A program made the position numbers and the translations under genes. Shown one piece after another: positions 8,439-64,000 of a stretch of 64,000 nucleotides of DNA; the first letter of the stretch is position 1; the number at the start of each line of letters is the position of its first letter. Below the pieces are notes generated by a model that saw only the letters and a list, made by a program, of their open reading frames with translations, ran no database searches and had not been told where the DNA came from. This stretch comes from Candidatus Latescibacterota bacterium (GTDB lineage Bacteria > Latescibacterota > UBA2968 > UBA8231): the NCBI GenBank assembly GCA_965223905.1, contig CBDCXV010000010.1:1600001-1664000 (forward strand). The letters run 5' to 3'.

Positions 8439-9336
8439 GTGTTTCTGCGCGTGGTGGGCCGTTGGTATCGGCGTCAGGCGCAGGCCATGGGCCATGACCG
8501 CGCGCGGTGGGGCTCGGTGACCTTCGTCCAAAGATTCGGTTCCTCCCTGAACCTCAATCCCCACGTACACGTGCTCATGCTCGACGGGGTCTACGTCGAT
8601 GGGGAGGACGCTCCGGTTTCCGTTCCGGCCCCGCCGTTGTCCGACCAAGCCGTTCAGCAGATCGTGGAGACGAGTGCGCGCCGCATCATCCGCTGGTGCA
8701 CGAAACGCGGCCTGCTCGACGACACCGCAGCGGATCCGCTCACCGACGAGGAGCCGGTGCTGGCGGCTCTCACCGCGGCTTCGGTGCGAGGGATCACCGC
8801 CACCGGGGCACGCGCCGGCCAACGCCCTGCGCCGGGTCCTGAAAGATCCGGCCACCGGGGTGCGTACGGCGCCCTTGTGCTTTGCTTCGCGCGGCTTTTG
8901 GCTGCATGCGGCAACGCGGATCGCAGGCCCTGACCGGCGGGGGCTCGAACGCTTGTGCCGCTACGTGGCCCGGCCGGCCCTGGCGGGAGGGCGTCTGCGC
9001 CTCGTCGATGCCGACCCTCTTTCCTTGGCGCTCAAAACGCCGTGGTCGGATGGGACCCGCCCTCTCCTGCTGTCGCCGATGGAACTGCTGGAGAAGCTGG
9101 CGGCTCTGGTTCCCCCGCCCCGGTTTCATCTCCTGCGCTACCACGGGGTCCTGGCCCCCCGGGCCCGGGCCCGCGACCGCATCGTGCCGGCCCAACCGGG
9201 TGCCGAGCCGGCGGCGGCGGACGGCTCGGCGAGCGCTGCGTCCTGCGGCCATCGACTGCGGTGGGGGACCCTGCTGGCGCGGGTGTTTTCCTCCGACCTC
9301 AGCGAATGCGCGGCCTGTGGCGGTCGCCTGAGAATC
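8439..9336 (+). mobile_element. ISCR/IS91-family fragment B (HUH motif through C-terminal CxxC; no oriIS; frameshift)
   Basis: QRFGSSLNLNPHVHVLMLDGVY (HUH), LERLCRYVARP (Tyr), RYHGVLAP. Confidence 0.9.
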
Positions 9337-15720: not shown

Positions 15721-16387
15721 CGATGCCGACCCTCTTTCCTTCGCGCTCAAAACGCCGTGGTCGGATGGGACCCGCCATCTCCTGCTGTCGCCGATGGAAC
15801 TGCTGGAGAAGCTGGCGGCTCTGGTTCCCCCGCCCCGGTTTCATCTCCTGCGCTACCACGGGGTCCTGGCCCCCCGGGCCCGGGCCCGCGACCGCATCGT
15901 GCCGGCCCAACCGGGTGCCGAGCCGGCCGCGGAGGACGCCTCGCCCAGCGCTGCGGCCTGCGGCCATCGACTGCGCTGGGCGACCCTGCTGGCGCGGGTG
16001 TTTTCCTCCGACCTCAGCCAATGCGCGGCCTGTGGCCGGCGCCTGCGGATCGTCGCCGCCCTGACCGATCCGACCTCGATCCGGATCTATCTGGAGGGGG
16101 TAGGGCTGCCGGCGATGCCCCCGCCGAGAGCCCCGCCGCAGCCGCTGTTCGAGTTCGCCGCCTGACCTCCTCCGCGATTCGCTCCCGGCGCCGGGCGTAC
16201 GGCGGGGGGTGCCCTCAACGGTCCCTCAGGCCCCGGATTGATCCGGATACGGGCCTACAGGCAACCAAACTGTACTGCGAGCTCGGTCGAAGGACGGGCA
16301 AACGATCCTCCGGGAGCTGCCGGACCCTGGCGGTGCGCTGTCCGCCTTGACCGAGAGTCCAAAAAAGGTGCCTGATTTTACCTATGC
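15721..16387 (+). mobile_element. ISCR/IS91-family fragment C (3' end + oriIS)
   Basis: Near-identical to copy A; ends ATTTTACCTATGC. Confidence 0.9.
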
Positions 16388-16601
16388 TTCCCCGCCATGG
16401 CCTAGGGCATCTAGTGCGGCATTGATGTTTTTGCGAACCGGCAAAGGGCGGACGACCCCCTGGGGCGTCAGTTCGACGATCCCCAGGGGCAAGATCCACT
16501 GGCGCCACTGGGCGGCGTTGTCGAAGCGCAATTCCTCGGCATTGAGCGGAGCAGCCGCAGCAAGCGCCAGCACGGCGCAGCGCAGATGTTTGGGTTTCAT
16601 C
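16388..16601 (-). pseudogene. N-terminal fragment of a secreted protein truncated at oriIS of copy C
   Basis: MKPKHLRCAVLALAAAAPLNA signal peptide; ORF stops inside the ISCR end. Confidence 0.5.
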
Positions 16602-21884: not shown

Positions 21885-22181
21885 CCTATCTGGAGGGGGT
21901 AGGGCTGCCGGCGAAGCCCCCGCCGAGAGCCCCGCCTCAGCCGCAGCTCGAGTTCGCCGCCTGACCTCCTCCGCGATTCGCTCCCGGTGCCGGGCGTACG
22001 GAGGGGTGTCCCCTCAACGGTCCTCAGGCCCCGGATTGATCCGGATACGGGCCGACAGACAACTAAACCGTACTGGGAACTCGGTCGAAGGACGGGCAAA
22101 CGATCCTCCGGGAGCTGCCGGACCCTGGCGGTGCGCTGTCCGCCTTGACCGAGAGTCCAAAAAAAGTGCCTCATTTTACCT
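21885..22181 (+). mobile_element. ISCR/IS91-family fragment D (3' UTR + oriIS interrupted at CT)
   Basis: Homologous to copies A/C; ends ATTTTACCT, then switches to the IS110 left end. Confidence 0.85.
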
Positions 22182-22315
22182 CGTATAATAGGTCCAGAGG
22201 TTTCGAGACAAGTGTAAATCCAGCCGTGACGGTCTCCCGTATGAGGGTACCTGAGCACCTAAGATGCGCTTGCCTTGTTGGGGACCGGAAGCGACCCTGT
22301 CACCAGCGAGGCTGC
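22180..22315 (+). mobile_element. Truncated IS110 left end
   Basis: Near-identical to 28652-28787 (CTCGTATAATAGGTCC...GAGGCTGC). Confidence 0.9.
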
Positions 22316-22440
22316 CGGAGATCACCCAGGGGCCGCGCCTTCCTTTGCTGGTCTGAGATCGAATTCACCCGACAATTGGCCACACTGAGAAGTGTAGTCA
22401 TGCCGCCCTCGATGAAGTCATCATCCCGATCTAGACAGAC

Positions 22441-22479
22441 AAAGCCTCAATTCAAAGCCTCAATTCAAAGCCTCAATTC
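22441..22479. repeat. Tandem repeat AAAGCCTCAATTC x3
   Basis: Three exact 13-bp units. Confidence 0.9.
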
Positions 22480-22509
22480 GGATGGAACCGAGCACTGACG
22501 AAACGGCCA

Positions 22510-24484: not shown

Positions 24485-25280
24485 GGCGCGGTGACCTTCG
24501 TCCAGCGGTTCGGTTCCTCCCTGAACCTCAATCCCCACATCCACGTACTCATGCTCGGTGGGGTCTACGTCGATGGGGAGGACGCTCCGGTTTTCGTTCC
24601 CGCCCCGCCGTTGTCGGACCAAGCCGTGCAGCAGATCGTGGAGACGAGTGCGCGCCGCATCATCCGCTTGTGCACGAAACGCGGCCTGCTCGACGACACC
24701 GCCGCCGATCCGCTCACCGACGAGGAGCCGGTGCTGGCGGCTCTGGTTCCCCCGCCCCGGTTTCATCTCCTGCGCTACCACGGGGTCCTGGCGCCCCGGG
24801 CCCGGGCCCGCGACCTCATCGTGCCGGCCCAGCCGGTTGCCGAGCCGTCGGCGGCAGACGCCTCGACGAGCGCTGCGGCCTGCGGCCATCGACTGCGGTG
24901 GGCGACCCTGCTGGCGCGGGTGTTTTCCTCCGACCTCAGCGAATGCGCGGCATGCGACGGGTGGCCTGAGAATCATCGCCGCTCTGACCGATCCGGCCTC
25001 GATCCGGACCTATCTGGAGGGAGTAGGGCGGCCGGCGATGCCCCCGCCGAGAGCCCCGCCTGAGCCGCTGTTCGAGTTCGCCGCCTGACCTGCCTTCTCG
25101 ACCCGTCGCCGGCGCCGGGCGTACGGCTGGGTGTGCCCTCAACGGGCTCACAGGCAACCAAACTACTGCGAGCTCGGTCGAAGGACTGGCAAAACGATCC
25201 TCAGGGGAGTTGCCGGACCCTTGCGGTGCGCTGTCCGCCTTGACCGAGAGTCCAAAAAAGGTGCCTAATTTTCCCTATAC
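24485..25280 (+). mobile_element. ISCR/IS91-family fragment E (HUH region, internal deletion, oriIS variant)
   Basis: NPHIH motif; EEPVLAAL|VPPPRF deletion join; ends ATTTTCCCTATAC. Confidence 0.9.
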
Positions 25281-25368
25281 TCCATTAAATTCGTGAACAT
25301 ATTACCAGGAGCGGTCAATAGTTGACAATTTTCCGACTGATACAGAGGGGTGTGATGTCAACTTTAGG

Positions 25369-26193: not shown

Positions 26194-27996
26194 ATGCACA
26201 CGGATATCCTCACTCCTAAAGACCTGTTTCAGAAAGAGGTACGCTACACCATCCCGCCTTTTCAGCGCCCCTACGTTTGGTCTCAGGACGATCAGTGGGA
26301 GCCGCTGTGGGAAGATGTCCGCAACGTAGCAGAAAACTATCTTGAGGAACTGGAGCGCTCAGGCAACAACGGAGTCGAAGCGGAGCAGAATACAAGCCCG
26401 CACTTCCTGGGGGCCGTCGTTCTCAAGCAAGTTCCCACGGCAGCAAAGGACATCGACCAACGTGAAGTGATTGACGGCCAACAGAGGGTGACGACGCTGC
26501 AATTGCTTCTGGATGCAATTCAACAGATTTGCGAAGAGTCAGACCAACCATACCTCAAGAGAGTCGCAAGGCGTCTGGCCAAGCTTGTTACCAACGACGA
26601 AGAACTCATCGGGGACGATAGGCTTCACATCTTCAAACTGTGGCCTACCAGGGGTGACAGGGAAGCGTTCAGACACGCCATGGACAACGGACTCGCCGTA
26701 AACGACTTTGCGGAGTCGCTGATTGTCCAGGCCCACGAATTCTTCCAGTTGCAAGTCCGCAAATGGCTTGACGATGCAGCGGGGCCAATCGAGCCCAAAA
26801 TCGATGCGCTTGAGGCTGCGGCAACATCGATGCTCCAGATGGTGGTTATTGACCTCAGTCCAAAGGACGATCCGAACCTCATATTCGAGACGCTAAATGC
26901 CCGTGGCACTCCGCTTGAACAGTCCGACCTCATCAAGAACTTTGTCCTTTCTCGGGAGCGCGACCGGCAGGGTGACATCTGGGGGAACCTGGACGACGGC
27001 TGGTGGAGGATGGAGGTCAAACAAGGTCGTCTGTTCAGGCCGCGCTTGGACATGCTCCTCAACTACTGGCTGGCTATGCGCACGGGTTCGGAGGTCTCGC
27101 CATCTAGGGTGTTTGACTTGTTCCGCAACTACCTTGATGACCAAGAAGTCCACGCGATGATGTCAGGCGTCAAGCGAGACCTGGTGAACTATCGTGATTT
27201 CGAATCGACCAGAGGCCGCAGCCCAGAGGAGAAGTCGTTCTACTACCACGTAGATGTCATGCAGGCCCGCGTGATCACCCCCGTACTTCTACTGCTCTTG
27301 TCAGCTGAGGAAGGACCGCGCATCAGAGCGTTCAGTTCTTTGGAGAGTTTCCTGGTACGTAGAATGATTTGCCGTCAGACCACGAAGGACTACAATAGGC
27401 TGGTTCTAGAGCTGGCCAGCCGCTTGAGGGATAGTGGACTGGATAAGGCCGATGCAGTTACCGGCGGATTTCTGAAAGAGCAGACGGCATATGCCAGAGA
27501 ATGGCCCAGCGACGAAGCTGTGGCCGATGCACTGGGGTCTTCTCCGCTCTATCGCCTGCTGACAAGAGGCAGACTACGATTGATCCTCGAAGGTGCTGAG
27601 CGCCGGTTGCGTTCTTCGGGAAAATCTGAACAGCCTGCCGTACCGACGAATCTGACAATAGAGCACCTGATGCCGGTAGGTTGGAGAATAGCGGAGTGGC
27701 CACTCCCAGAGGGCATTGTCACCGATGCAGCCACCTACCAACGCAACACGCTCATCCACTCAATTGGCAACCTCACGCTCGCGACCCAGAAACTCAATTC
27801 ATCCATGTCCAACGACGCTTGGGCGAGCAAACGCGACGAACTCCAAGGGCACAGTGTTTTGTTGCTGAACAACGAGCTGTTATCTCAGCCTTCTTGGAGC
27901 GAGGAAACCATACGGTCCAGAAGCCGACGAATGGCGAAGCTCGTATCAGAAAGATGGCCCGGCCCCGCTTCAGAGAAGTGGAACCAAGCCAAATAG
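26194..27996 (+). CDS. gmrSD: GmrSD-type (DUF262 + DUF1524 HNH) type IV restriction endonuclease
   Basis: IPPFQRPYVW, IDGQQRVTT, FETLNARG, IEHLMP, IGNLTLA...LNSSMSN. Confidence 0.88.
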   Translation: MHTDILTPKDLFQKEVRYTIPPFQRPYVWSQDDQWEPLWEDVRNVAENYLEELERSGNNGVEAEQNTSPHFLGAVVLKQVPTAAKDIDQREVIDGQQRVTTLQLLLDAIQQICEESDQPYLKRVARRLAKLVTNDEELIGDDRLHIFKLWPTRGDREAFRHAMDNGLAVNDFAESLIVQAHEFFQLQVRKWLDDAAGPIEPKIDALEAAATSMLQMVVIDLSPKDDPNLIFETLNARGTPLEQSDLIKNFVLSRERDRQGDIWGNLDDGWWRMEVKQGRLFRPRLDMLLNYWLAMRTGSEVSPSRVFDLFRNYLDDQEVHAMMSGVKRDLVNYRDFESTRGRSPEEKSFYYHVDVMQARVITPVLLLLLSAEEGPRIRAFSSLESFLVRRMICRQTTKDYNRLVLELASRLRDSGLDKADAVTGGFLKEQTAYAREWPSDEAVADALGSSPLYRLLTRGRLRLILEGAERRLRSSGKSEQPAVPTNLTIEHLMPVGWRIAEWPLPEGIVTDAATYQRNTLIHSIGNLTLATQKLNSSMSNDAWASKRDELQGHSVLLLNNELLSQPSWSEETIRSRSRRMAKLVSERWPGPASEKWNQAK

Positions 27997-28018
27997 AGAG
28001 TAAGAGCTAAGGAGGATA

Positions 28019-28653
28019 GCTCAAAACGCCGTGGTCGGATGGGACCCGCCCTCTCCTACTCTCTCCGATGGAACTGCTGGAGAAGCTGGCGGCTCTGGTC
28101 CCCCGCCCCGGCTCCATCTCCTGCGCTACCACGGGGTCCTGGCGCCCCGGGCCCGGGGCGCCAAGACCGCATCGTGCCGGCCAAGCCGGTTGCCGAGCCG
28201 GCGGCGGACGGCTCGGCGAGCGCTGCGCCCTGCTCCCATCGGCTGCGCTGGGCGACCCTGCTGGCGCGGGTGTTTTCCTCCGACCTCAGCCAATGCGCGG
28301 CCTGTGGCGGTCGCCTGCGGATCGTCGCCGCCCTGACCGATCCGACCTCGATCCGGATCTATCTGGAGGGGGTAGGGCTGAGGCGATGCCCCCGCCGAGA
28401 GCCCCGCCTCAGCCGCTGTTCGAGTTCGCCGCCTGACCTCCTCCGCGATTCGCTCCCGGCGCCGGGCGTACGGAGGGGTGTGCCCCCATCAGTCCCTCAG
28501 GCCCCGGATTGATCCGGATACGGGCCGACAGGCAACCAAACTGTACTGCGAGCTCGGTCGAAGGACTGGCAACGATCCTCAGGGGAGTTGCCGGACCCTT
28601 GCGGTGCGCTCAGCGCCTTGACCGAGAGTCCAAAAAGGGGCCTCATTTTACCT
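28019..28653 (+). mobile_element. ISCR/IS91-family fragment F; oriIS split by IS110 (terminal ATAC at 29944-29947)
   Basis: Homologous to copy A with the same 5' start GCTCAAAACG; ends ATTTTACCT. Confidence 0.9.
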
Positions 28654-28662
28654 CGTATAATA

Positions 28663-28910
28663 GGTCCGGAGGTTTCGAGGCAAGTGTAAATCCAGCCGTG
28701 AGGGTCTCCCGTATGAGGGTACCTGAGCACGTAAGATGCGCTTGCCTTGTTGGGGACCTGAAGCGATCCTGTCACCAGCGAGGCTGCTGGGGTTCGGCTG
28801 ATTTTACCTCGGGGCATCGTCCCCTGTGATATAGACCGCCGATGCCAGCATGTTGCACTTACCGCTTGACGGGACCCGGTTCCCTGATCTGGCTGCGAGG
28901 ACGTGCCCGG
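28663..28910 (+). ncRNA. Putative IS110 bridge RNA
   Basis: 5' stem-loop; target loop with ATTTTACCT (28801-28809) and TATAG (28830-28834); donor loop with TTACCGCTTGAC (28859-28870) and TGCGAG (28894-28899); each loop closed by stems. Transcript ends are estimated. Confidence 0.82.
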
Positions 28911-28965
28911 CTGGCGTCACCCGATCGTGGGCAGCTTCCACCTCCCTCTTGGCAAGGAGCGTCCC

Positions 28966-29889
28966 ATGTACCCCCTCGGCATCGACGTCGCCAAACGCCG
29001 ACACCATGCCACCCTGCTTGATGAGGACGGCACCCCGGTGTTCCGCAACTTCGCCGTGCCCCACAGTCGCCAGGGCTTCGAGCAGTTGCTGGCCAAGGTA
29101 GCCGACACCGCCGCAGCCGATGCCATCCGGGTCGGCATGGAAGCCACCGGTCACTACTGGATGGTGCTGTTCGAAGCGATGACTCAGGCCGGGTACGCCG
29201 TCGACGTCCTCAATCCGCTGGTCATCGCCGCCCGACGCAATATCACCATTCGGGGCACCAAGACCGACATCGACCTCCGCCGGCTGACCCGACTGCTCCG
29301 GGAAAGCAGCCGCGGGTGCTTCGGCCGAGCGCCGGCGCAACGGCTCAAAGCAGCCGCCAAGAACTCGTGGGCCCTGAGGCGTCGAGCTGAGGCCCTGGCG
29401 ATGGAGATCCGCTTCGTCGTGGAACGGCTCAATGTGCTCATCGATCAGATCCGCCAGCTGGAGAAGCGGTTCCAGACCCTCATGGTCGACCAGCAGAAGC
29501 TGTTGCAAACCATTCCCGGCCTGGGAAAGGTGTGGGCACCCACCGTCCTCGCCGAAATCCTGCCCGTCTTTCAGCCCGACAGCAAGCACGGCGCCCGTAA
29601 GTTGGTTGCCACCGCAGGCGTCGATGTGCGCCTCACCGAAAGCGGCGACAAGAAGGGATCCGGAAAAAGGTCAAAGCGGGGCAGTCGATACCTGCGCACC
29701 GCGGTCATGCAGGCGGCTGAAATCGCCGTCTTTCGCAGCCACGATCCACTCTTCAGCGAGGTCTACAAACGACAGAAAGATCGCGGCAAGCACCACATGG
29801 TAGCGCTGACACATGTCGCCAACAAGATGTTGCACGTGATCTTCTCCGTCTTGAAGAACGACAGGCCCTACACCCCAATACTCACGTAA
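28966..29889 (+). CDS. IS110-family DEDD recombinase with probable in-frame internal deletion
   Basis: GIDVAK, GMEATGHYW, LNP, KTD; C-terminal TIPGLG, AGVD...ESG, KRGSRYLR; RBS AAGGAG. Confidence 0.9.
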   Translation: MYPLGIDVAKRRHHATLLDEDGTPVFRNFAVPHSRQGFEQLLAKVADTAAADAIRVGMEATGHYWMVLFEAMTQAGYAVDVLNPLVIAARRNITIRGTKTDIDLRRLTRLLRESSRGCFGRAPAQRLKAAAKNSWALRRRAEALAMEIRFVVERLNVLIDQIRQLEKRFQTLMVDQQKLLQTIPGLGKVWAPTVLAEILPVFQPDSKHGARKLVATAGVDVRLTESGDKKGSGKRSKRGSRYLRTAVMQAAEIAVFRSHDPLFSEVYKRQKDRGKHHMVALTHVANKMLHVIFSVLKNDRPYTPILT

Positions 29890-30040
29890 CGTGAACCATA
29901 GATAAAATGCCCACGATCGGTGCTGACTGTTTACCGCTTGTCTATACATTACGCAAGCTAGAAGGCGATCAGGATGTTGCCGCTCGTGCAGAACCGACCC
30001 GTTCCCACTCAACCCTGGCCTTGCCCGATCATTGGAGGCG

Positions 30041-31717
30041 TCAGTGACGCGAGCCGATAGTTTTCTGCATCCGGAATCCGTGCGCCGAGAACTGCTGAAC
30101 TAACAGCCCTTTCCTGCCACCACGGACGTTGACGGCCTGCTCGACTACAGCGGCTTTGGTGTTCGCCCCGTGCCAAATCTCTTCGATGGCGTTCGACGGC
30201 AAGTCGATCACCCCTATGGGCCAGTCATTCCTGTCCAGGGATCCTACGTCGCGCGTTTTGTCAGCATCAACCAGCAGCCGCACCTCCGACTCGTACTCCC
30301 ATGACATACCTTTGACCAACAGTAGGCGCGATAGGGACTTCCAGTCCGTCCCGAATGTTGCAAGATCGACGGTTGATTGAATCGAAGTGCCAGCCCGTTC
30401 TTCGCCCGCCCTCAAACGACGGTCCATCTCCTCGCGGTTGGCTAGGTCCAAGCGAATCGTATCGTCCTTCAAGGGTTGGTAGTTCGGTGCCATCTCAGAG
30501 TACATCACCGGCCTCAATTCGTAGCCTAGCGATCTCAGCGCGTCTGTGCTGTACCCGGCGACTATGCCGGTGTTGCGCGCATAGTGCGCCCACATTGTCG
30601 GAACTAGTGGGTCCGTGCTTAACGACACGACTCCAACCAAGTCGTTCAGGAATGCCTGAATGAAAGGCGACAGCCTCGGACTGCCGTGTCGTCGGGCTTC
30701 CACCAAGAGGTCGTACCAAGGCAGTTCAACGTCCAGGTGCGACTTCAGTTTTTTCTGCAATAGCCGAAGGAAGTTTAGCGTGTCATGGTCGCCTCTTCCG
30801 ATCGTCTCGACATTGCATTCCATGATGTCGTTCAACGCGAGCATTTGGGTGGCGCGTAGGCTTTTGGGCGCTCCCTTGTACACGAGTTCCGCAGGGATGT
30901 ACTTGTAGACAATGCCGGGTATTTCGACGTCTCCCCATAGCCACTCCTGTAGGCAATCTTGTGACTGGTATAGCTGAAGCCAATGCGTAGCCAGCTGGCT
31001 GGCTCTAGCTCCCACGCCGCTTGCCTGAGACATAGCCGACACCACGCTTGAAAGGGTCATCTGGATGACCTTCTCGCTGTACGCGTGGTGGCGTTTGTGT
31101 ATGGAGCAGTAGATGCCCTGATCGGCCAACGGGCGGACCGCGGATCGAGCGGGCCTCAACGGCTCGGCAGGCACGTGCAGCAAATCCAGGCCGGGGTTCG
31201 GCGATATGAGGACTGCACCCTCTGGAGGTGGTGGCATGCGAGTCGCTTTGTCCTTTTGCTGTCTATCTGTGTCGCGAATGGCGGTCTCCAACCACTCGAC
31301 GTCGTATTGATAGTGGGCGTTCTTCGATTTGCTGGCACGCCTGTCAGACTCCTTGTGCAGGCCGAAGTCGGCGCAGTACATGAGGTCCAACCTGCCACGA
31401 GAGCCATGGCAGTCGCAGCCATCCGAAAGTGTTTCGCACCACGGATACGGCTCCCCATCGACACGGTAGTCGTCGTGGTCCCAGCCAGCAGGAAGCTGGT
31501 CTACTATGGAGGACCAGTTGGCTAGATTGTCTGCCAGAACAGATGGCTTGAACGGTGTCCCGGGCTTGTGTTCGTCTAGACGCATGCCAATTTGGAGAGT
31601 TAGTCGTGTATGGAAGATCTCGACCAATCGGTCCGGTGACTGAAACGACGCCTGTATCTTCATCCATACACGAGAGTTGCGGATAACCGCTTCGTAGAGG
31701 TGACTGCGCTCTGTCAT
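30041..31717 (-). CDS. DUF2971-domain protein with N-terminal extension
   Basis: VYKY, LNDIME, SLS...MWAHYA, V.YS, K..SWEYESEVRL. Confidence 0.7.
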   Translation of the reverse strand: MTERSHLYEAVIRNSRVWMKIQASFQSPDRLVEIFHTRLTLQIGMRLDEHKPGTPFKPSVLADNLANWSSIVDQLPAGWDHDDYRVDGEPYPWCETLSDGCDCHGSRGRLDLMYCADFGLHKESDRRASKSKNAHYQYDVEWLETAIRDTDRQQKDKATRMPPPPEGAVLISPNPGLDLLHVPAEPLRPARSAVRPLADQGIYCSIHKRHHAYSEKVIQMTLSSVVSAMSQASGVGARASQLATHWLQLYQSQDCLQEWLWGDVEIPGIVYKYIPAELVYKGAPKSLRATQMLALNDIMECNVETIGRGDHDTLNFLRLLQKKLKSHLDVELPWYDLLVEARRHGSPRLSPFIQAFLNDLVGVVSLSTDPLVPTMWAHYARNTGIVAGYSTDALRSLGYELRPVMYSEMAPNYQPLKDDTIRLDLANREEMDRRLRAGEERAGTSIQSTVDLATFGTDWKSLSRLLLVKGMSWEYESEVRLLVDADKTRDVGSLDRNDWPIGVIDLPSNAIEEIWHGANTKAAVVEQAVNVRGGRKGLLVQQFSAHGFRMQKTIGSRH

Positions 31718-31823: not shown

Positions 31824-31898
31824 TTCCTCCGACATCAGCGAATGCGCAGCCTGTGGCGGGCGCCTGCGGATCGTCGCCGCCTGACCTGCCTTTTCGAC
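31824..31898 (+). mobile_element. ISCR fragment G (tiny, internally deleted)
   Basis: TTCCTCCGAC.TCAGCGAATGCGC..CTGTGGCGG.CGCCTGCGGATCGTCGCCGCC|TGACCTGCC. Confidence 0.8.
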
Positions 31899-46247: not shown

Positions 46248-47169
46248 GCCGGTGCTGGCGGCTCTCACCGCGGCTTCGGTGCGAGGGCTCACCGCCACCG
46301 GGGCAGGCGCCGGCCAACGCCTGCGCCGGGTCCTGAAAGATGCGGCCACCGGGGTGCGTACGGCGCCCTTGTGCTTTGCTTCGCGCGGCTTTTCCCTGCA
46401 TGCGGCAACGCGGATCGCCGGCCCTGACCGGCGCGGGCTCGAACGCTTATGCCGCTACGTGGCCCGGCCGGCCCTGGCGGGGGGGCGTCTGCGCATTCTC
46501 GATGCCGACCATCTTTCCTTCGCGCTCAAAACGCCGTGGTCGGATGGGACCCGCCCTCTCCTGCTGTCTCCGATGGAACTGCTGGAGAAGCTGGCGGCTC
46601 TGGTTCCCCCGCCCCGGTTTCATCTCCTGCGCTACCACGGGGTCCTGGCGCCCCGGGCCCGGGCCCGCGACCGCATCGTGCCGGCCCAGCCGGGTGCCGA
46701 GCCGTCGGCGGCAGACGCCTCGACGAGCGCTGCGTCCTGCGGCCATCGACTGCGCTGGGCGACCCTGCTGGCGCGGGTGTTTTCCTCCGACCTCAGCGAA
46801 TGCGCGGTCTGTGGCGGTCGCCTGAGAATCATCGCCGCCCTGACCGATCCGGCCTCGATCCGGACCTGTCTGGAGGGGGTAGGGCTGCCGGCGATGCCCC
46901 CGCCGAGGGCCCCGCCTGAGCCGCTGTTCGAGTTCGCCGCCTGACCTCCTCCGCGATTCGCTCCCTGCGCCGTGAGCCGTACGGAGGAGTACGCCCTCAA
47001 ATACCAGATTGACCCCTGAAACGCGCCGAAATCCTTTACAACGGTGCTCGGAGCAGGCCCGAACGATTCGGTGCGACGACAAGCGATTCATCAGGAACCC
47101 TGCCTAACCCTTGACAACAGTTTCAGCGAATTGATAGTACCGATATCGGTGCCCTTATTTTTCCTATAC
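46248..47169 (+). mobile_element. ISCR/IS91-family fragment H with alternative 3' UTR/oriIS
   Basis: FSLHAA, LERLCRYVARP, RYHGVLAP; UTR diverges from about 47000 but ends GTGCCCTTATTTTTCCTATAC. Confidence 0.85.
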
Positions 47170-61225: not shown

Positions 61226-64000
61226 ATGCAATGGTTGAACAAAGCAGCAGCCCTGAGCTTGTTCGGTGCTCTGGCCCTTGTCGCTTGTGGCCGCGATTCC
61301 CCGCTAGTTTTCACTGGCAGGGGAGGGGAAGTGGGGGTTGCCATTCCCGATGCCAAGCTGCGGGCGGCGATTGCAGGTGCGCTCGGCAAGGCACGAAACG
61401 CCCTGATCACCGTCGATGAAATGGCGACCTTGACGCGCCTTGACGTACCCAATTCAGGCATTCGCGATTTGACTGGGCTCAAATTCGCAACCAGCCTGAC
61501 GCGGTTACATCTCGGTATAGACGGTATAGACATGGTCGAGGGCAGGTATGTGAACAGCAACGATATATCCGACCTGACGCCTCTGGCCGGGCTGACCAAC
61601 CTGGCAAGGCTAATCCTTACTCGCACCAACGTCTCGGATTTGACACCCCTGGCAGGCCTGACCAGCCTGACAAGGCTGTCTCTTGGAGACAACTCCATCG
61701 CGGATTTGACGCCCCTCGCCGACCTGACCAACCTGACACGGCTATCTCTTGGAGACAACTCCATTTCGGACCTCACCCCCCTCGCCGGACTAACCAGCCT
61801 GACACAGCTATTTCTTTCTAGTACCAGCGTCTCGGATTTGACGCCCCTCGCCGGGCTGACCAACCTGACATGGCTGTCTCTTGGCGATAACTCCCTTGCG
61901 GATTTGACGCCCCTCGCCGGGCTGACCAACCTGACAAGCCTGTCTCTTGGCCACAACTCCATTTCGGACCTCACCCCCCTCGCCGGACTAACCAGCCTGA
62001 CATGGCTGTCCCTTTACACCAACAGCGTCTCCGATTTGACACCCCTTGCCGGGCTGACCAGCCTGACAGGGCTGCGGCTTGACGCAAACTCCATTGCGGA
62101 CCTCACCCCCCTCGCCGGGCTGACCAACCTGATAAGGCTGTCTCTGGACGACAACTCCATTGCGGATCCGATGCCCCTCGCCGGGCTGACCAACCTGACA
62201 GACCTGTCTCTTGGCGACAACTCTATTGCGGATCTGATGCCCCTCGACGGCCTGACCAACCTTACAGAACTTCAGCTCGGGAACAACAGCATCTCGGACC
62301 TCACCCCCCTCGCCGGGTTGACCAACCTGATAAGGCTGTACCTCAACGCGAATTTCATTGCGGACATCGATCCCCTCGCCGGACTGACCAACCTGGCAAC
62401 GCTGTGGCTTGGCGACAACGCAATCTCGGATTTGACGCCTCTGGCCGGGCTGACCAACCTGACCGAACTGCGGCTTGAGAACAACAACATCTCGGATATC
62501 GCGCCATTGGTGGAGAATGCTGGATTGGGCGTTGGGAACTGGATTGATGTGCGGGGCAACCCGCTGAGCGACGCATCGATCACCACGCACATTCCGGCCC
62601 TTCAAGCCAGAGGAGTGATCAGCGATGGCGATGGAGGGGAGACGCCCCTTGCCATTCCCGATGCCAACCTGCACGCGGCCATTGCAAACGAGCTCGGCAA
62701 GGCAAGCAACGACCCGATCACCGCCAGTGAGATGACAGCTTTGAGTCACCTTTTTGCACTCGACTCGGATATTGGCGAGTTGACCGGGCTTGAGTATGCG
62801 ATCAACCTGACAACGCTACAGCTGTATGGCAACCGCGTCTCGGATTTGACCCCTCTCGCAGGGCTGACCAACCTGGCAGAGCTACATCTTCGCCGCAACT
62901 CCATCACGGATCTGACGCCCCTCGGCGGGCTTGCCAACCTGACGACGCTCCTCCTTCTTGGCAACAACGTCTCGGATCTGACACCCCTCGCCGCATTGAC
63001 CAACCTGACCGAACTGGAGCTTTACTTCAATTCAGTCTCGGATCTCACGCCCCTTGCTGGATTGACCAACCTGACCGAACTGGAGCTTGACTTCAATTCA
63101 GTCTCGGATCTGACGCCCCTCGCCGGCCTGGCCAACCTGAAAGAGCTGCATCTTCGCAGCAACTCCATTGCGGCCTTGACACCCCTCGCCGGGCTGACCA
63201 ACCTGACAGCGCTGGAGCTTGAAGACAACGCAATCACGGACCTCTCGCCCCTGGCCGGGCTGACCAACCTGATGACCCTGAAGCTAGGCGGGAACTCCAT
63301 CTCTGAGTTGCCCGCCGGCTTGTTCGCCGGCTTCGCCAACCTCGAAACGCTCTACTTGGCGCCCAACCCAGGTGCTCCGTTCGCGTTCACGCTCGAACTT
63401 GAACGCACGGACACGGCCAACCGGCTGGCACCAGGCCCCGCTGATGTTGCCGTCCAACTAGCAGAGGGAGCACCGTTCGAGATCACCGTAGCGTTGTCAG
63501 TACACAACGGCTCGGCGTCTGTTGCTTCGCTCACGATCGGCGCCGGCGACACCGCAAGCACCCCTGCACAAGTCACGGCGCTCAGCGGCTCGTCAACTGC
63601 GGCTCATGTTGTTTTGGACCATGCACCCCAGATTCCAAGCGGGTTCACGGGCATTGAAGTTCGCACCGGCAGCCCGCTGGTTTTGTTCGCCGAATCCGAC
63701 GACCACTTTCCGGTTGCCGAAGGAGAGATTCCACCTCATATCCTGCAAGTGGGCGGCCCAAAGCCAGCATTCGACGTGAAGGAGTACTTTTCGGACGCCG
63801 ATGGCGATGAACTGGTGTATTCGGTCACGTCCAATGACGGTCATCTGGTTGGCACCAGAGTGAACGCGGGCGTGATAACCTTGGTCCCCCGTGTGGAAGG
63901 TTATGCTTCGGTTGTCGTTACCGCGACCGATCCCAATGGATGGAGCGCATCGCAAGAGCTACCCGTCACGGTACTGCCGGCCCCGGATCCTCATTCGTTC
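61226..64000 (+). CDS. Internalin-like LRR lipoprotein, 3' end outside window
   Basis: Absent from the ORF track because it has no stop in the window. MQWLNKAAALSLFGALALVAC lipobox; IPDxxLR caps; 22-aa repeats N.ISDLTPLAGLTNL..L.L; Ig-like segments to the window end. Confidence 0.88.
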   Translation, partial: MQWLNKAAALSLFGALALVACGRDSPLVFTGRGGEVGVAIPDAKLRAAIAGALGKARNALITVDEMATLTRLDVPNSGIRDLTGLKFATSLTRLHLGIDGIDMVEGRYVNSNDISDLTPLAGLTNLARLILTRTNVSDLTPLAGLTSLTRLSLGDNSIADLTPLADLTNLTRLSLGDNSISDLTPLAGLTSLTQLFLSSTSVSDLTPLAGLTNLTWLSLGDNSLADLTPLAGLTNLTSLSLGHNSISDLTPLAGLTSLTWLSLYTNSVSDLTPLAGLTSLTGLRLDANSIADLTPLAGLTNLIRLSLDDNSIADPMPLAGLTNLTDLSLGDNSIADLMPLDGLTNLTELQLGNNSISDLTPLAGLTNLIRLYLNANFIADIDPLAGLTNLATLWLGDNAISDLTPLAGLTNLTELRLENNNISDIAPLVENAGLGVGNWIDVRGNPLSDASITTHIPALQARGVISDGDGGETPLAIPDANLHAAIANELGKASNDPITASEMTALSHLFALDSDIGELTGLEYAINLTTLQLYGNRVSDLTPLAGLTNLAELHLRRNSITDLTPLGGLANLTTLLLLGNNVSDLTPLAALTNLTELELYFNSVSDLTPLAGLTNLTELELDFNSVSDLTPLAGLANLKELHLRSNSIAALTPLAGLTNLTALELEDNAITDLSPLAGLTNLMTLKLGGNSISELPAGLFAGFANLETLYLAPNPGAPFAFTLELERTDTANRLAPGPADVAVQLAEGAPFEITVALSVHNGSASVASLTIGAGDTASTPAQVTALSGSSTAAHVVLDHAPQIPSGFTGIEVRTGSPLVLFAESDDHFPVAEGEIPPHILQVGGPKPAFDVKEYFSDADGDELVYSVTSNDGHLVGTRVNAGVITLVPRVEGYASVVVTATDPNGWSASQELPVTVLPAPDPHSF
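61571..63360 (+). repeat. 66-bp coding tandem repeats (LRR), two arrays of about 15 and about 8 units
   Basis: Register conserved every 66 bp over 61571-62495 and 62843-63305. Confidence 0.9.

Follow-up and report, generated by a model that had tools for sequence, protein, structure and literature searches.

An IS110-group insertion sequence with a predicted bridge RNA that matches the oriIS-side tip of IS91/ISCR-type transposons

The stretch of DNA considered here, a window of 64,000 nucleotides (nt) from contig CBDCXV010000010.1 of a Candidatus Latescibacterota bacterium, contains at positions 28654–29943 an insertion sequence of the IS110 family that lies within the end of a second mobile element. 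It is a deletion derivative of 1290 bp, with a non-coding left end of 312 nt, one long open reading frame and a right end of 54 nt including the core dinucleotide. Directly upstream lies the 3' remnant of an IS91-family element (28019–28653), which comprises the C-terminal piece of a Y2 transposase gene (stop codon at 28434–28436) and a 217-bp tail on the oriIS side, ending in ...CATTTTACCT. The parts of the element, the IS91-like tails and the target sites described below are on the forward strand of the window. Our subject is the predicted guide RNA in the left end of the IS110 element, the letters of which match the tip of IS91-like elements, and the question of what this match means for the choice of insertion sites.

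The borders of the element can be read from copies of the same flank that have remained empty. The empty target ATTTTACCTATAC at 2231–2243 reads ATTTTAC-CT-ATAC, i.e. ATTTTACC-T-ATAC, and further empty ends, each one letter off, are found at 16375 (ATGC) and 25268 (ATTTTCCCTATAC). At 28640–29950 the window reads ...GGGGCCTCATTTTAC-CT-(CGTATAATAGG ... GTTTACCGCTTGT-CT)-ATACATT, in which the left target ATTTTAC with core CT covers 28645–28653 (CT at 28652–28653), the right end GTTTACCGCTTGT with its core covers 29929–29943 (CT at 29942–29943) and the right target ATAC, with which the IS91-like tip ends, covers 29944–29947; empty sites carry a single CT. From this comparison of occupied and empty flanks it follows that the inserted piece measures 1290 bp, one CT counted. 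The element has neither terminal inverted repeats nor a target duplication, only the 2-nt core at each junction, and it is inserted 4 bp inside the oriIS-side tip and points the same way as the gene of the IS91 transposase. A second IS91-like tail (21886–22181) is occupied at the same position by a 134-bp left-end fragment of the same IS110 element (22182–22315), which is 95.5% identical and cut off within the stem of the target loop. The genome has three left junctions of this lineage (28654, 22182 and C10:~237k), the last belonging to a decayed copy near C10:237,000, and the remaining remnant is a 149-bp internal fragment. Just past the truncated fragment, at 22440–22480, the sequence CAAAGCCTCAATT is repeated three times head to tail.

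The recombinase gene (28966–29889) is the sole long reading frame of the element and carries both IS110-family domains, PF01548 (92.9 bits, covering only profile positions 1–108 of 155) and PF02371 with the serine region (61.3 bits, residues 199–288), whose SKRGS block is shared by all aligned proteins. The protein has 307 residues, against about 395 in full-length relatives. Compared with 19 homologs of 395–401 residues it lacks, by an in-frame deletion, 88 residues directly after an invariant KTD (junction at 29268/29269, KTD|IDLRRL), and the locus L003 of a relative retains 264–265 nt that are absent from the window copy. The missing stretch begins directly behind KTD and so takes away the fourth acidic residue that full-length homologs have (KTDSVDS). 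To judge from its sequence, the window copy is a member of the IS110 family but a defective one, a fossil in which part of the catalytic DEDD domain has been deleted and for which activity cannot be assumed.

Ahead of this gene, the left end contains two loops that are closed by stems. The target-binding loop (28785–28850) has an outer stem TGCTGG/CCAGCA (28785–28790 with 28845–28850), a middle stem TCGGC/GCCGA (28794–28798 with 28838–28842) and an inner stem GGGG/CCCC (28811–28814 with 28821–28824), and holds a left target guide (LTG, 28801–28809) and a right target guide (RTG, 28830–28834). The donor-binding loop (28855–28906), with stems GCAC/GTGC (28855–28858 with 28903–28906) and GGGA/TCCC (28871–28874 with 28881–28884), holds a left donor guide (LDG, 28859–28870) and its right counterpart (RDG, 28894–28899). 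All letters, stems and loop strings quoted in the original prediction are present, and the arrangement of the four guides, which had been likened to that of the IS621 bridge RNA, agrees with the scheme set out by Durrant et al. 2024 (PMC11208160). In that scheme the donor guides treat the donor as the target guides treat the target, with the core included in every pairing. Under the same strand rules (PMC11208160), loop 1 is predicted to pair with the target, LTG with the bottom strand and RTG with the top strand, and loop 2 with the joined ends of the element. In this copy LTG ATTTTACCT agrees with left target plus core at 9 of 9 positions, RTG TATAG is the complement of CTATA (a fit of 5), LDG TTACCGCTTGAC shares 11 of 12 letters with the right end TTACCGCTTGTC, and RDG TGCGAG pairs with CTCGTA over 6 positions, one of them a G-T pair. 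In the window, four IS91-like ends and the target loop together account for all five occurrences of the 9-mer ATTTTACC(T).

Relatives for comparison were gathered from three sources: 101 related genomes gave 15 loci; species-representative genomes gave 80, seven of which (L016–L022) are at least 51% identical in protein; and metagenomes gave another 80, 46 of which (L096–L139, L148 and L157) fall in the close clade by a 47% identity cut. On an alignment of 44 distinct leader segments (A3), 90.6% of the cells are paired in the proposed stems, against 41.6–49.4% when the partners are slid by 1–3 columns. Both sides change in 15 of the 26 pairs, none of 500 shuffles reached the covariation score, and RNAalifold finds 34 pairs, 18 of them compensatory. 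Folding of the single leader sequence, one of the ways in which the original prediction was to be checked, gave a less favourable outcome: the whole leader folds no better than its shuffles (z −0.30), and the two-loop structure therefore rests on covariation and not on folding energy. Across the relatives the first loop varies and the second hardly changes, as is also described for bridge RNAs in PMC11208160.

One detail of the structure allows two solutions. RNAalifold prefers to pair CCAGC (28845–28849) with a downstream GCTGG (28910–28914) over the upstream TGCTGG; as the three segments change in concert, neither pairing is better supported by covariation than the other. As an observation on the alignment, columns 22–28, 96–101 and 164–169 (window 28785–28790, 28845–28850 and 28910–28915) covary as a trio, of which the middle segment can serve as the closing strand of the target loop or, alternatively, of a long stem that encloses the donor loop. 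The alternative pairing may represent an alternative conformation or a conformational switch.

The guides also follow their targets from one relative to the next. For RTG, the contiguous match counted from the core has a mean length of 5.03 with the element's own target and 2.92 with the targets of others (n = 37 elements with known junctions), and for LTG the mean number of matches over the last 9 nt is 6.59 and 4.50, respectively (n = 32); for either guide, 0 of 10,000 permutations did as well. Fits are perfect in L001, L004, L114 and L121. On the right side, a flank ATC goes with the guide GATAG (L004), ATCCG with CGGATAG (L005), AAGC with GCTTAG (L011), ATACG with CGTATAG (L102) and GATTCA with TGAATCAG (L119). 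Guides may also differ among near-identical elements: at LTG positions 4 and 6 (window 28804 and 28806), contigs of run X3 and locus L002 have ATTATTCCT instead of ATTTTACCT, a two-letter variant of the guide.

The identity of the target as an IS91-family end is based on several comparisons. The remnant upstream of the element was matched by tblastn to the full-length IS91-like protein of the genome, and the window tail ends in ...AAAAAGGGGCCTCATTTTACCTATAC 217 bp past the transposase stop. The genome has 25 matches to PF04986, three of which cover profile positions 1–179; full-length Y2 HUH transposase genes at C1:927518–929047 and C11:524158–525666 are both followed by the same tail on the same strand, and the tail of the C1 copy ends in ...CATTTTACCTATAC, which is the local tip. 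The complete local transposase shares, across more than 90% of its length, 38–41% identity with plasmid-borne transposases that carry the annotation ISCR1, ISVsa3 or IS91 family, and in the corresponding plasmid records (L180, L181 and L182) a terminal motif, ...AAAGG..GTTT...CTTCCTATAC or, written more generally, ...AAAGG..(G/C)(T/C)TTAT...CCTATAC, is found about 230 bp (220–240) past the stop. The ends of these elements read ...AAAAAGGTGGTTTATACTTCCTATACCC (ISCR1), ...AAAAGGGCGTTTATTCTTCCTATACG (ISVsa3) and ...AAAAGGGCGTTTGAACTTCCTATACG (IS91-family record), their positions being inferred from the motif and the point of divergence, since the records carry no annotated oriIS. Papers on the IS91 family describe oriIS as the end downstream of the transposase gene, beside the cleavage site (PMC13181058, PMC6218425), and the target is therefore taken to be the terminal motif of the oriIS side, as had originally been suggested.

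In the 7.9-Mb genome the exact 12-mer ATTTTACCTATA occurs at nine sites, all nine of which are empty IS91-like ends; if up to one mismatch is allowed, the number of sites rises to 22, including 19 IS91-like ends (15 of the main repeat type, three of a second type and one on C9). IS91-like copies begin to diverge 4 bp from the CT core. CTT follows CCTAT(A/G) in 14 of the 15 main-type ends, which recalls the CTTG/GTTC rule described in PMC13181058 but does not locate the nick. Many contigs of public runs pass directly from the IS91 tail into ATACTT..., i.e. represent empty sites; stretches that such contigs leave uncovered carry no meaning. A separate idea, that the right end of the IS110 element mimics the oriIS tip and that insertion would rebuild one, was rejected, as the score was reached by 738 of 5000 shuffles with the ISVsa3 end and by 4225 of 5000 with the local end.

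Some 47 BLAST matches of the ~640-bp IS91 3' remnant are arranged in same-orientation arrays, 3–7 kb apart, with variable 5' truncation points and an intact oriIS-side end. In the window they lie at 1617–2246, 8753–9336, 15745–16390, 21886–22181, 24733–25281, 28019–28653, 31824–31886 and 46248–47000, and clusters occur elsewhere at C10:353829–383212, 546340–560947 and 1459636–1479327 and at C1:928690–967168. Between the remnants, metabolic genes are accompanied by others such as SIR2, GmrSD, DUF2971 and a DUF6036 nucleotidyltransferase. The arrays look like the outcome of ISCR-style serial capture or of abortive rolling-circle copies. At 61565–63272 the window further contains a long tandem array of imperfect repeat units of about 66 bp (it matches itself at offsets of 66, 132 and 198 nt, 72–80% identity).

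The same kind of site is occupied in this genome, in the genomes of four relatives and in metagenome contigs. In the subclade that contains the present element, which is defined by its right target, 19 distinct left junctions are available. Nine have IS91 transposase sequence or an IS91 repeat upstream on the same strand (L001, L003, L006, L007, L008, L011, L015, L099/100 and L101), two (L004 and L005) lie in inverted repeats of the IS1595 family with a similar tip, and eight show the motif only, two of these having less than 105 nt of flank. The right junctions are uniform, with A[TA][ACG]C in all 19 distinct ones, and the restored target of L096 equals the end of ISVsa3 in 17 of 17 letters. 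When 47 recombinases, without frameshifted or partial genes, were placed in a maximum-likelihood tree, those with this right target grouped in a single clade (support 100/99) of ten rows, among them P0001 (395 residues), for which the site was assumed and not seen. Among 76 genomes of the taxonomic family that were searched with P0001, the clade was present in only five and a near-identical intact copy in none; close relatives on known plasmids were not found either, the best match being 36.9% identical.

The two IS1595-linked sites qualify the claim about the target. An IS1595-family element (PF12762 and PF12760) harbours L004 in its right inverted repeat, and L005 lies in the repeat of a derivative of about 480 bp. 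An IS1595-family element of about 1.07 kb occurs in G000 (C11:798340–799450, C10:54860–55860), with inverted repeats that end in ...GGATACCCCCAAAGGTGCCTTAT..., the outer part of which is similar to the oriIS motif of IS91/ISCR; an inverted copy of the repeat, at C11:525873, abuts a full-length IS91 tail exactly at ...AAAAAGGTGCCT. Because L004 and L005 sit in such repeats, the specificity is one for a sequence and not for a rolling-circle origin as such. With this qualification the original interpretation is supported.

A sister clade (L016, L017, L103–L107, L109, L110, L114–L116 and L130) has the same ends and the same donor loop, is found at ...CTCCT|TTCC-type sites that have no conserved wider context, and has target loops that read ...TCTCCT and GAAAG. 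The left flanks in the subclade of the present element are conserved to about position −20, which is beyond the footprint of the guide, against only −4 in the sister clade.

Expression of the leader RNA from a circular form can be envisaged. According to the model described in PMC11208160, a promoter is rebuilt across the junction between right end and left end. Here CTGACT (29923–29928) would provide the −35 half and TATAAT (28656–28661) the −10 half, at a distance of 17 nt once the ends are joined, and most relatives have TTGACT in place of CTGACT; a promoter that forms only across the joined ends is thus predicted for the present element from its sequence. Locus L002 (G012, 1480–1510) has the right end, CT and the left end directly joined in the chromosome, and on this natural junction a promoter scan scores TTAACT-17-TATAAT. 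In L113 a left-end-like start is found just past the right end of the element. Such junctions could be tandem copies, integrated junctions or insertions into a donor-like site. Contigs of two RNA libraries cover parts of the leader and the gene's 5' part, in X20 positions 28920–29157 (238 nt, no differences) and in X21 positions 28747–28985 (11 differences) and 28958–29184 (five differences), which are not counted as expression in view of possible carry-over of DNA.

Taken together, the architecture of the leader, its covariation, the agreement of guides with targets and the recurrent site make it very probable that the present element is a bridge-RNA insertion sequence of the IS110 group that is programmed for the oriIS-side tip of IS91/ISCR elements, and that its subclade uses transposon ends as landing pads, the copy in the window being a fossil. 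The analysis points to a mechanism of the ordinary bridge-RNA IS110 type. By analogy with the model for IS621, an excised circle would join the right end to the left end, and the joined ends would create a sigma-70 promoter of the form (C/T)TGACT, 17 nt, TATAAT, from which a leader RNA of about 250 nt with two internal loops would be transcribed, beginning some 7 nt past TATAAT. Its conserved donor loop would pair with the element's own joined ends and its variable target loop with the bottom strand of ATTTTAC-CT and the top strand of CT-ATA, after which the DEDD/serine recombinase would exchange strands at the CT core. RNA expression, activity in recombination and any damage to the IS91 origin are matters of inference.

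Several results weigh against this interpretation. A scan of 27500–31000 with the covariance models of Rfam, which may include none for bridge RNAs, gave no match at E values up to 1. No intact copy was found in the 7.9-Mb genome, where the three PF01548 matches are this copy, a fragment and an unrelated one, and the two copies in the window could stem from a single insertion that was later duplicated along with the IS91 repeat. Among the contigs of public runs there is no joint of right end to left end, which, as these are contigs only, is uninformative on circles either way. The permutation tests overstate independence because the relatives share guides and targets by descent. By script, LTG fits at 5 of 9 positions in L013, L017, L102 and L107 and at 3 of 9 in L005, the left end of which has an extra T; by eye it fits at 6 of 9 in L003, and the RTG run is only 3 in L008, L013, L097, L104 and L118. 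Finally, oriIS is not the sole class of target, since L004 and L005 of the same lineage sit in IS1595 inverted repeats. On the other side, the observations that were named beforehand as damaging, i.e. other copies at unrelated sites or loops that are not conserved, did not turn up: the other copies of the subclade occupy sites of the same type, the loops are conserved with covariation of their stems in 44 relatives, and the guides track their targets.

Even if the programming is accepted, its meaning for the IS91 elements can be viewed in different ways. One alternative, with somewhat less than an even chance, is that the lineage simply homes to a short sequence common to several transposon tips, which would serve as plentiful and harmless mobile landing pads, with no antagonism towards the rolling-circle origin and no selected effect on IS91. 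This agrees with the position of L004 and L005 in IS1595 repeats, with the fact that many of the targeted IS91 copies in the genome are already 5'-truncated remnants, of which in the window only a C-terminal piece is left, and with the known use of repeats as targets by IS110/IS1111 elements (PMC11208160, PMC11187229). It is less easily reconciled with the balance of the sites, nine of 19 being IS91-linked and two in IS1595, and with the precise position of the core, 4 bp from the tip and between the putative subterminal palindromic region and the end at which IS91-family elements are cleaved, as described in PMC13181058; with the core placed there, a functional effect would be hard to avoid if the copy was active.

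That effect is central to the idea that the lineage parasitises rolling-circle IS91/ISCR elements, which we put forward tentatively, as a possibility that stays on the lesser side of even. Insertion inside the oriIS tip would split the recognition region from the cleavage end and disable the host element or ride on it, and the target loop would drift along with oriIS variants and occasionally jump to look-alikes in IS1595, the guides of some members fitting the ISCR2-type tip. For an active copy, the position makes crippling of the IS91 origin likely, but many targets in this genome are, as mentioned above, remnants already.

It is improbable that the choice of sites is set largely by the recombinase or by the structure of oriIS DNA, such as hairpins, with the complementarity of the loops being secondary. 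The oriIS tail does fold somewhat better than shuffles as single-stranded DNA (28490–28653, z −2.06, with seven of 200 shuffles folding as well), and may hold subterminal palindromes; a 2026 preprint on ISPpu10 reportedly describes a requirement for sequence plus structure (10.64898/2026.03.19.712850); and the weak LTG fits and the flank conservation well past the guide footprint would be in agreement with it. Such wider conservation is also expected if the sites are homologous IS91 ends. Moreover, the RTG letters follow the right target, from ATA/TATAG to the pairs listed above for L004, L005, L011 and L102, and the sister clade combines the same donor loop and ends with other target loops at unrelated sites. 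That a single accidental insertion hitch-hiked with the spreading IS91 repeat is hardly credible: the two window copies do lie in related repeats (90.6% identical, against 95.5% for the IS110 parts), but the same position is occupied in clearly different IS91-like tails, in four other genomes and in metagenome contigs, and the guide equals the target, of which all nine exact genomic sites are IS91 ends, so that these independent sites already contradict it.

What remains as the preferred reading, an IS110-group element programmed for IS91/ISCR tips, adds a natural class of targets for bridge-RNA recombinases, namely the origin-side tip of rolling-circle transposons, and offers a clear case of one insertion sequence that is nested in the functional end of another. 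A series of relatives with a changing target loop and a fixed donor loop is useful for deriving natural rules on guide length and mismatch tolerance. If insertion blocks the origin, these elements would act as a natural brake on a transposon family that is known for capturing neighbouring genes. The mechanism is an established one, and the class of target seems to be new. In agreement with the expectation that this target had not been described before, a literature search that covered neither the supplementary target tables of PMC11208160 and PMC11187229 nor ISfinder and TnCentral found no paper linking IS110 to IS91 or oriIS; mentions of ISCR in papers on bridge RNAs were assumed to refer to the name of another element.

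Comparison with known systems places the element nearest to IS621 and the IS110 group, elements with bridge RNAs that reportedly were also the subject of a study by Hiraizumi et al. 2024 (PMC11208158). Shared features are a recombinase with DEDD and serine domains, a leader RNA in a long left end, a CT core, two loops with LTG/RTG and LDG/RDG on opposite strands, of which the first is variable and the second conserved, and a promoter rebuilt across the joined ends, which is a prediction in the present case. Different from IS621 are the recombinase of the present clade, with about 395 residues, the longer leader, with about 130 nt ahead of the target loop, the ability of its CCAGC to pair with either the 5' TGCTGG or the 3' GCTGG, and the predicted natural target, which is a transposon tip instead of a repetitive extragenic palindromic (REP) sequence; relatives in plasmid collections reach an identity of at most 37%. 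Elements of the IS1111 type in the ends of Tn3-family transposons resemble it as DEDD-family insertion sequences that occupy another transposon's end at a fixed position and in a fixed orientation, but have subterminal repeats and a guide RNA encoded downstream of the gene, and their host is a DDE transposon of the Tn3 family, whereas the present element is of the IS110 type and its host end belongs to a rolling-circle HUH element or, in two relatives, to an IS1595 repeat. The IS1111-attC group (ISKpn4, ISPst6) and the REP-targeting ISPa11, ISPpu9 and ISPpu10 likewise home to repeated, structured and non-essential sequences linked to mobile DNA, as described in PMC11187229 and PMC12288879, with a target class different from the IS91 tips found here. 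As regards the target instead of the element, the ends of IS91, ISCR1 and ISVsa3/ISCR2 have the same terminal motif at about the same distance past the stop codon as the local tip CATTTTACCTATAC, and the local IS91-like elements differ from them by a transposase that is 38–41% identical and by being mostly 5'-truncated and arranged in same-orientation arrays.

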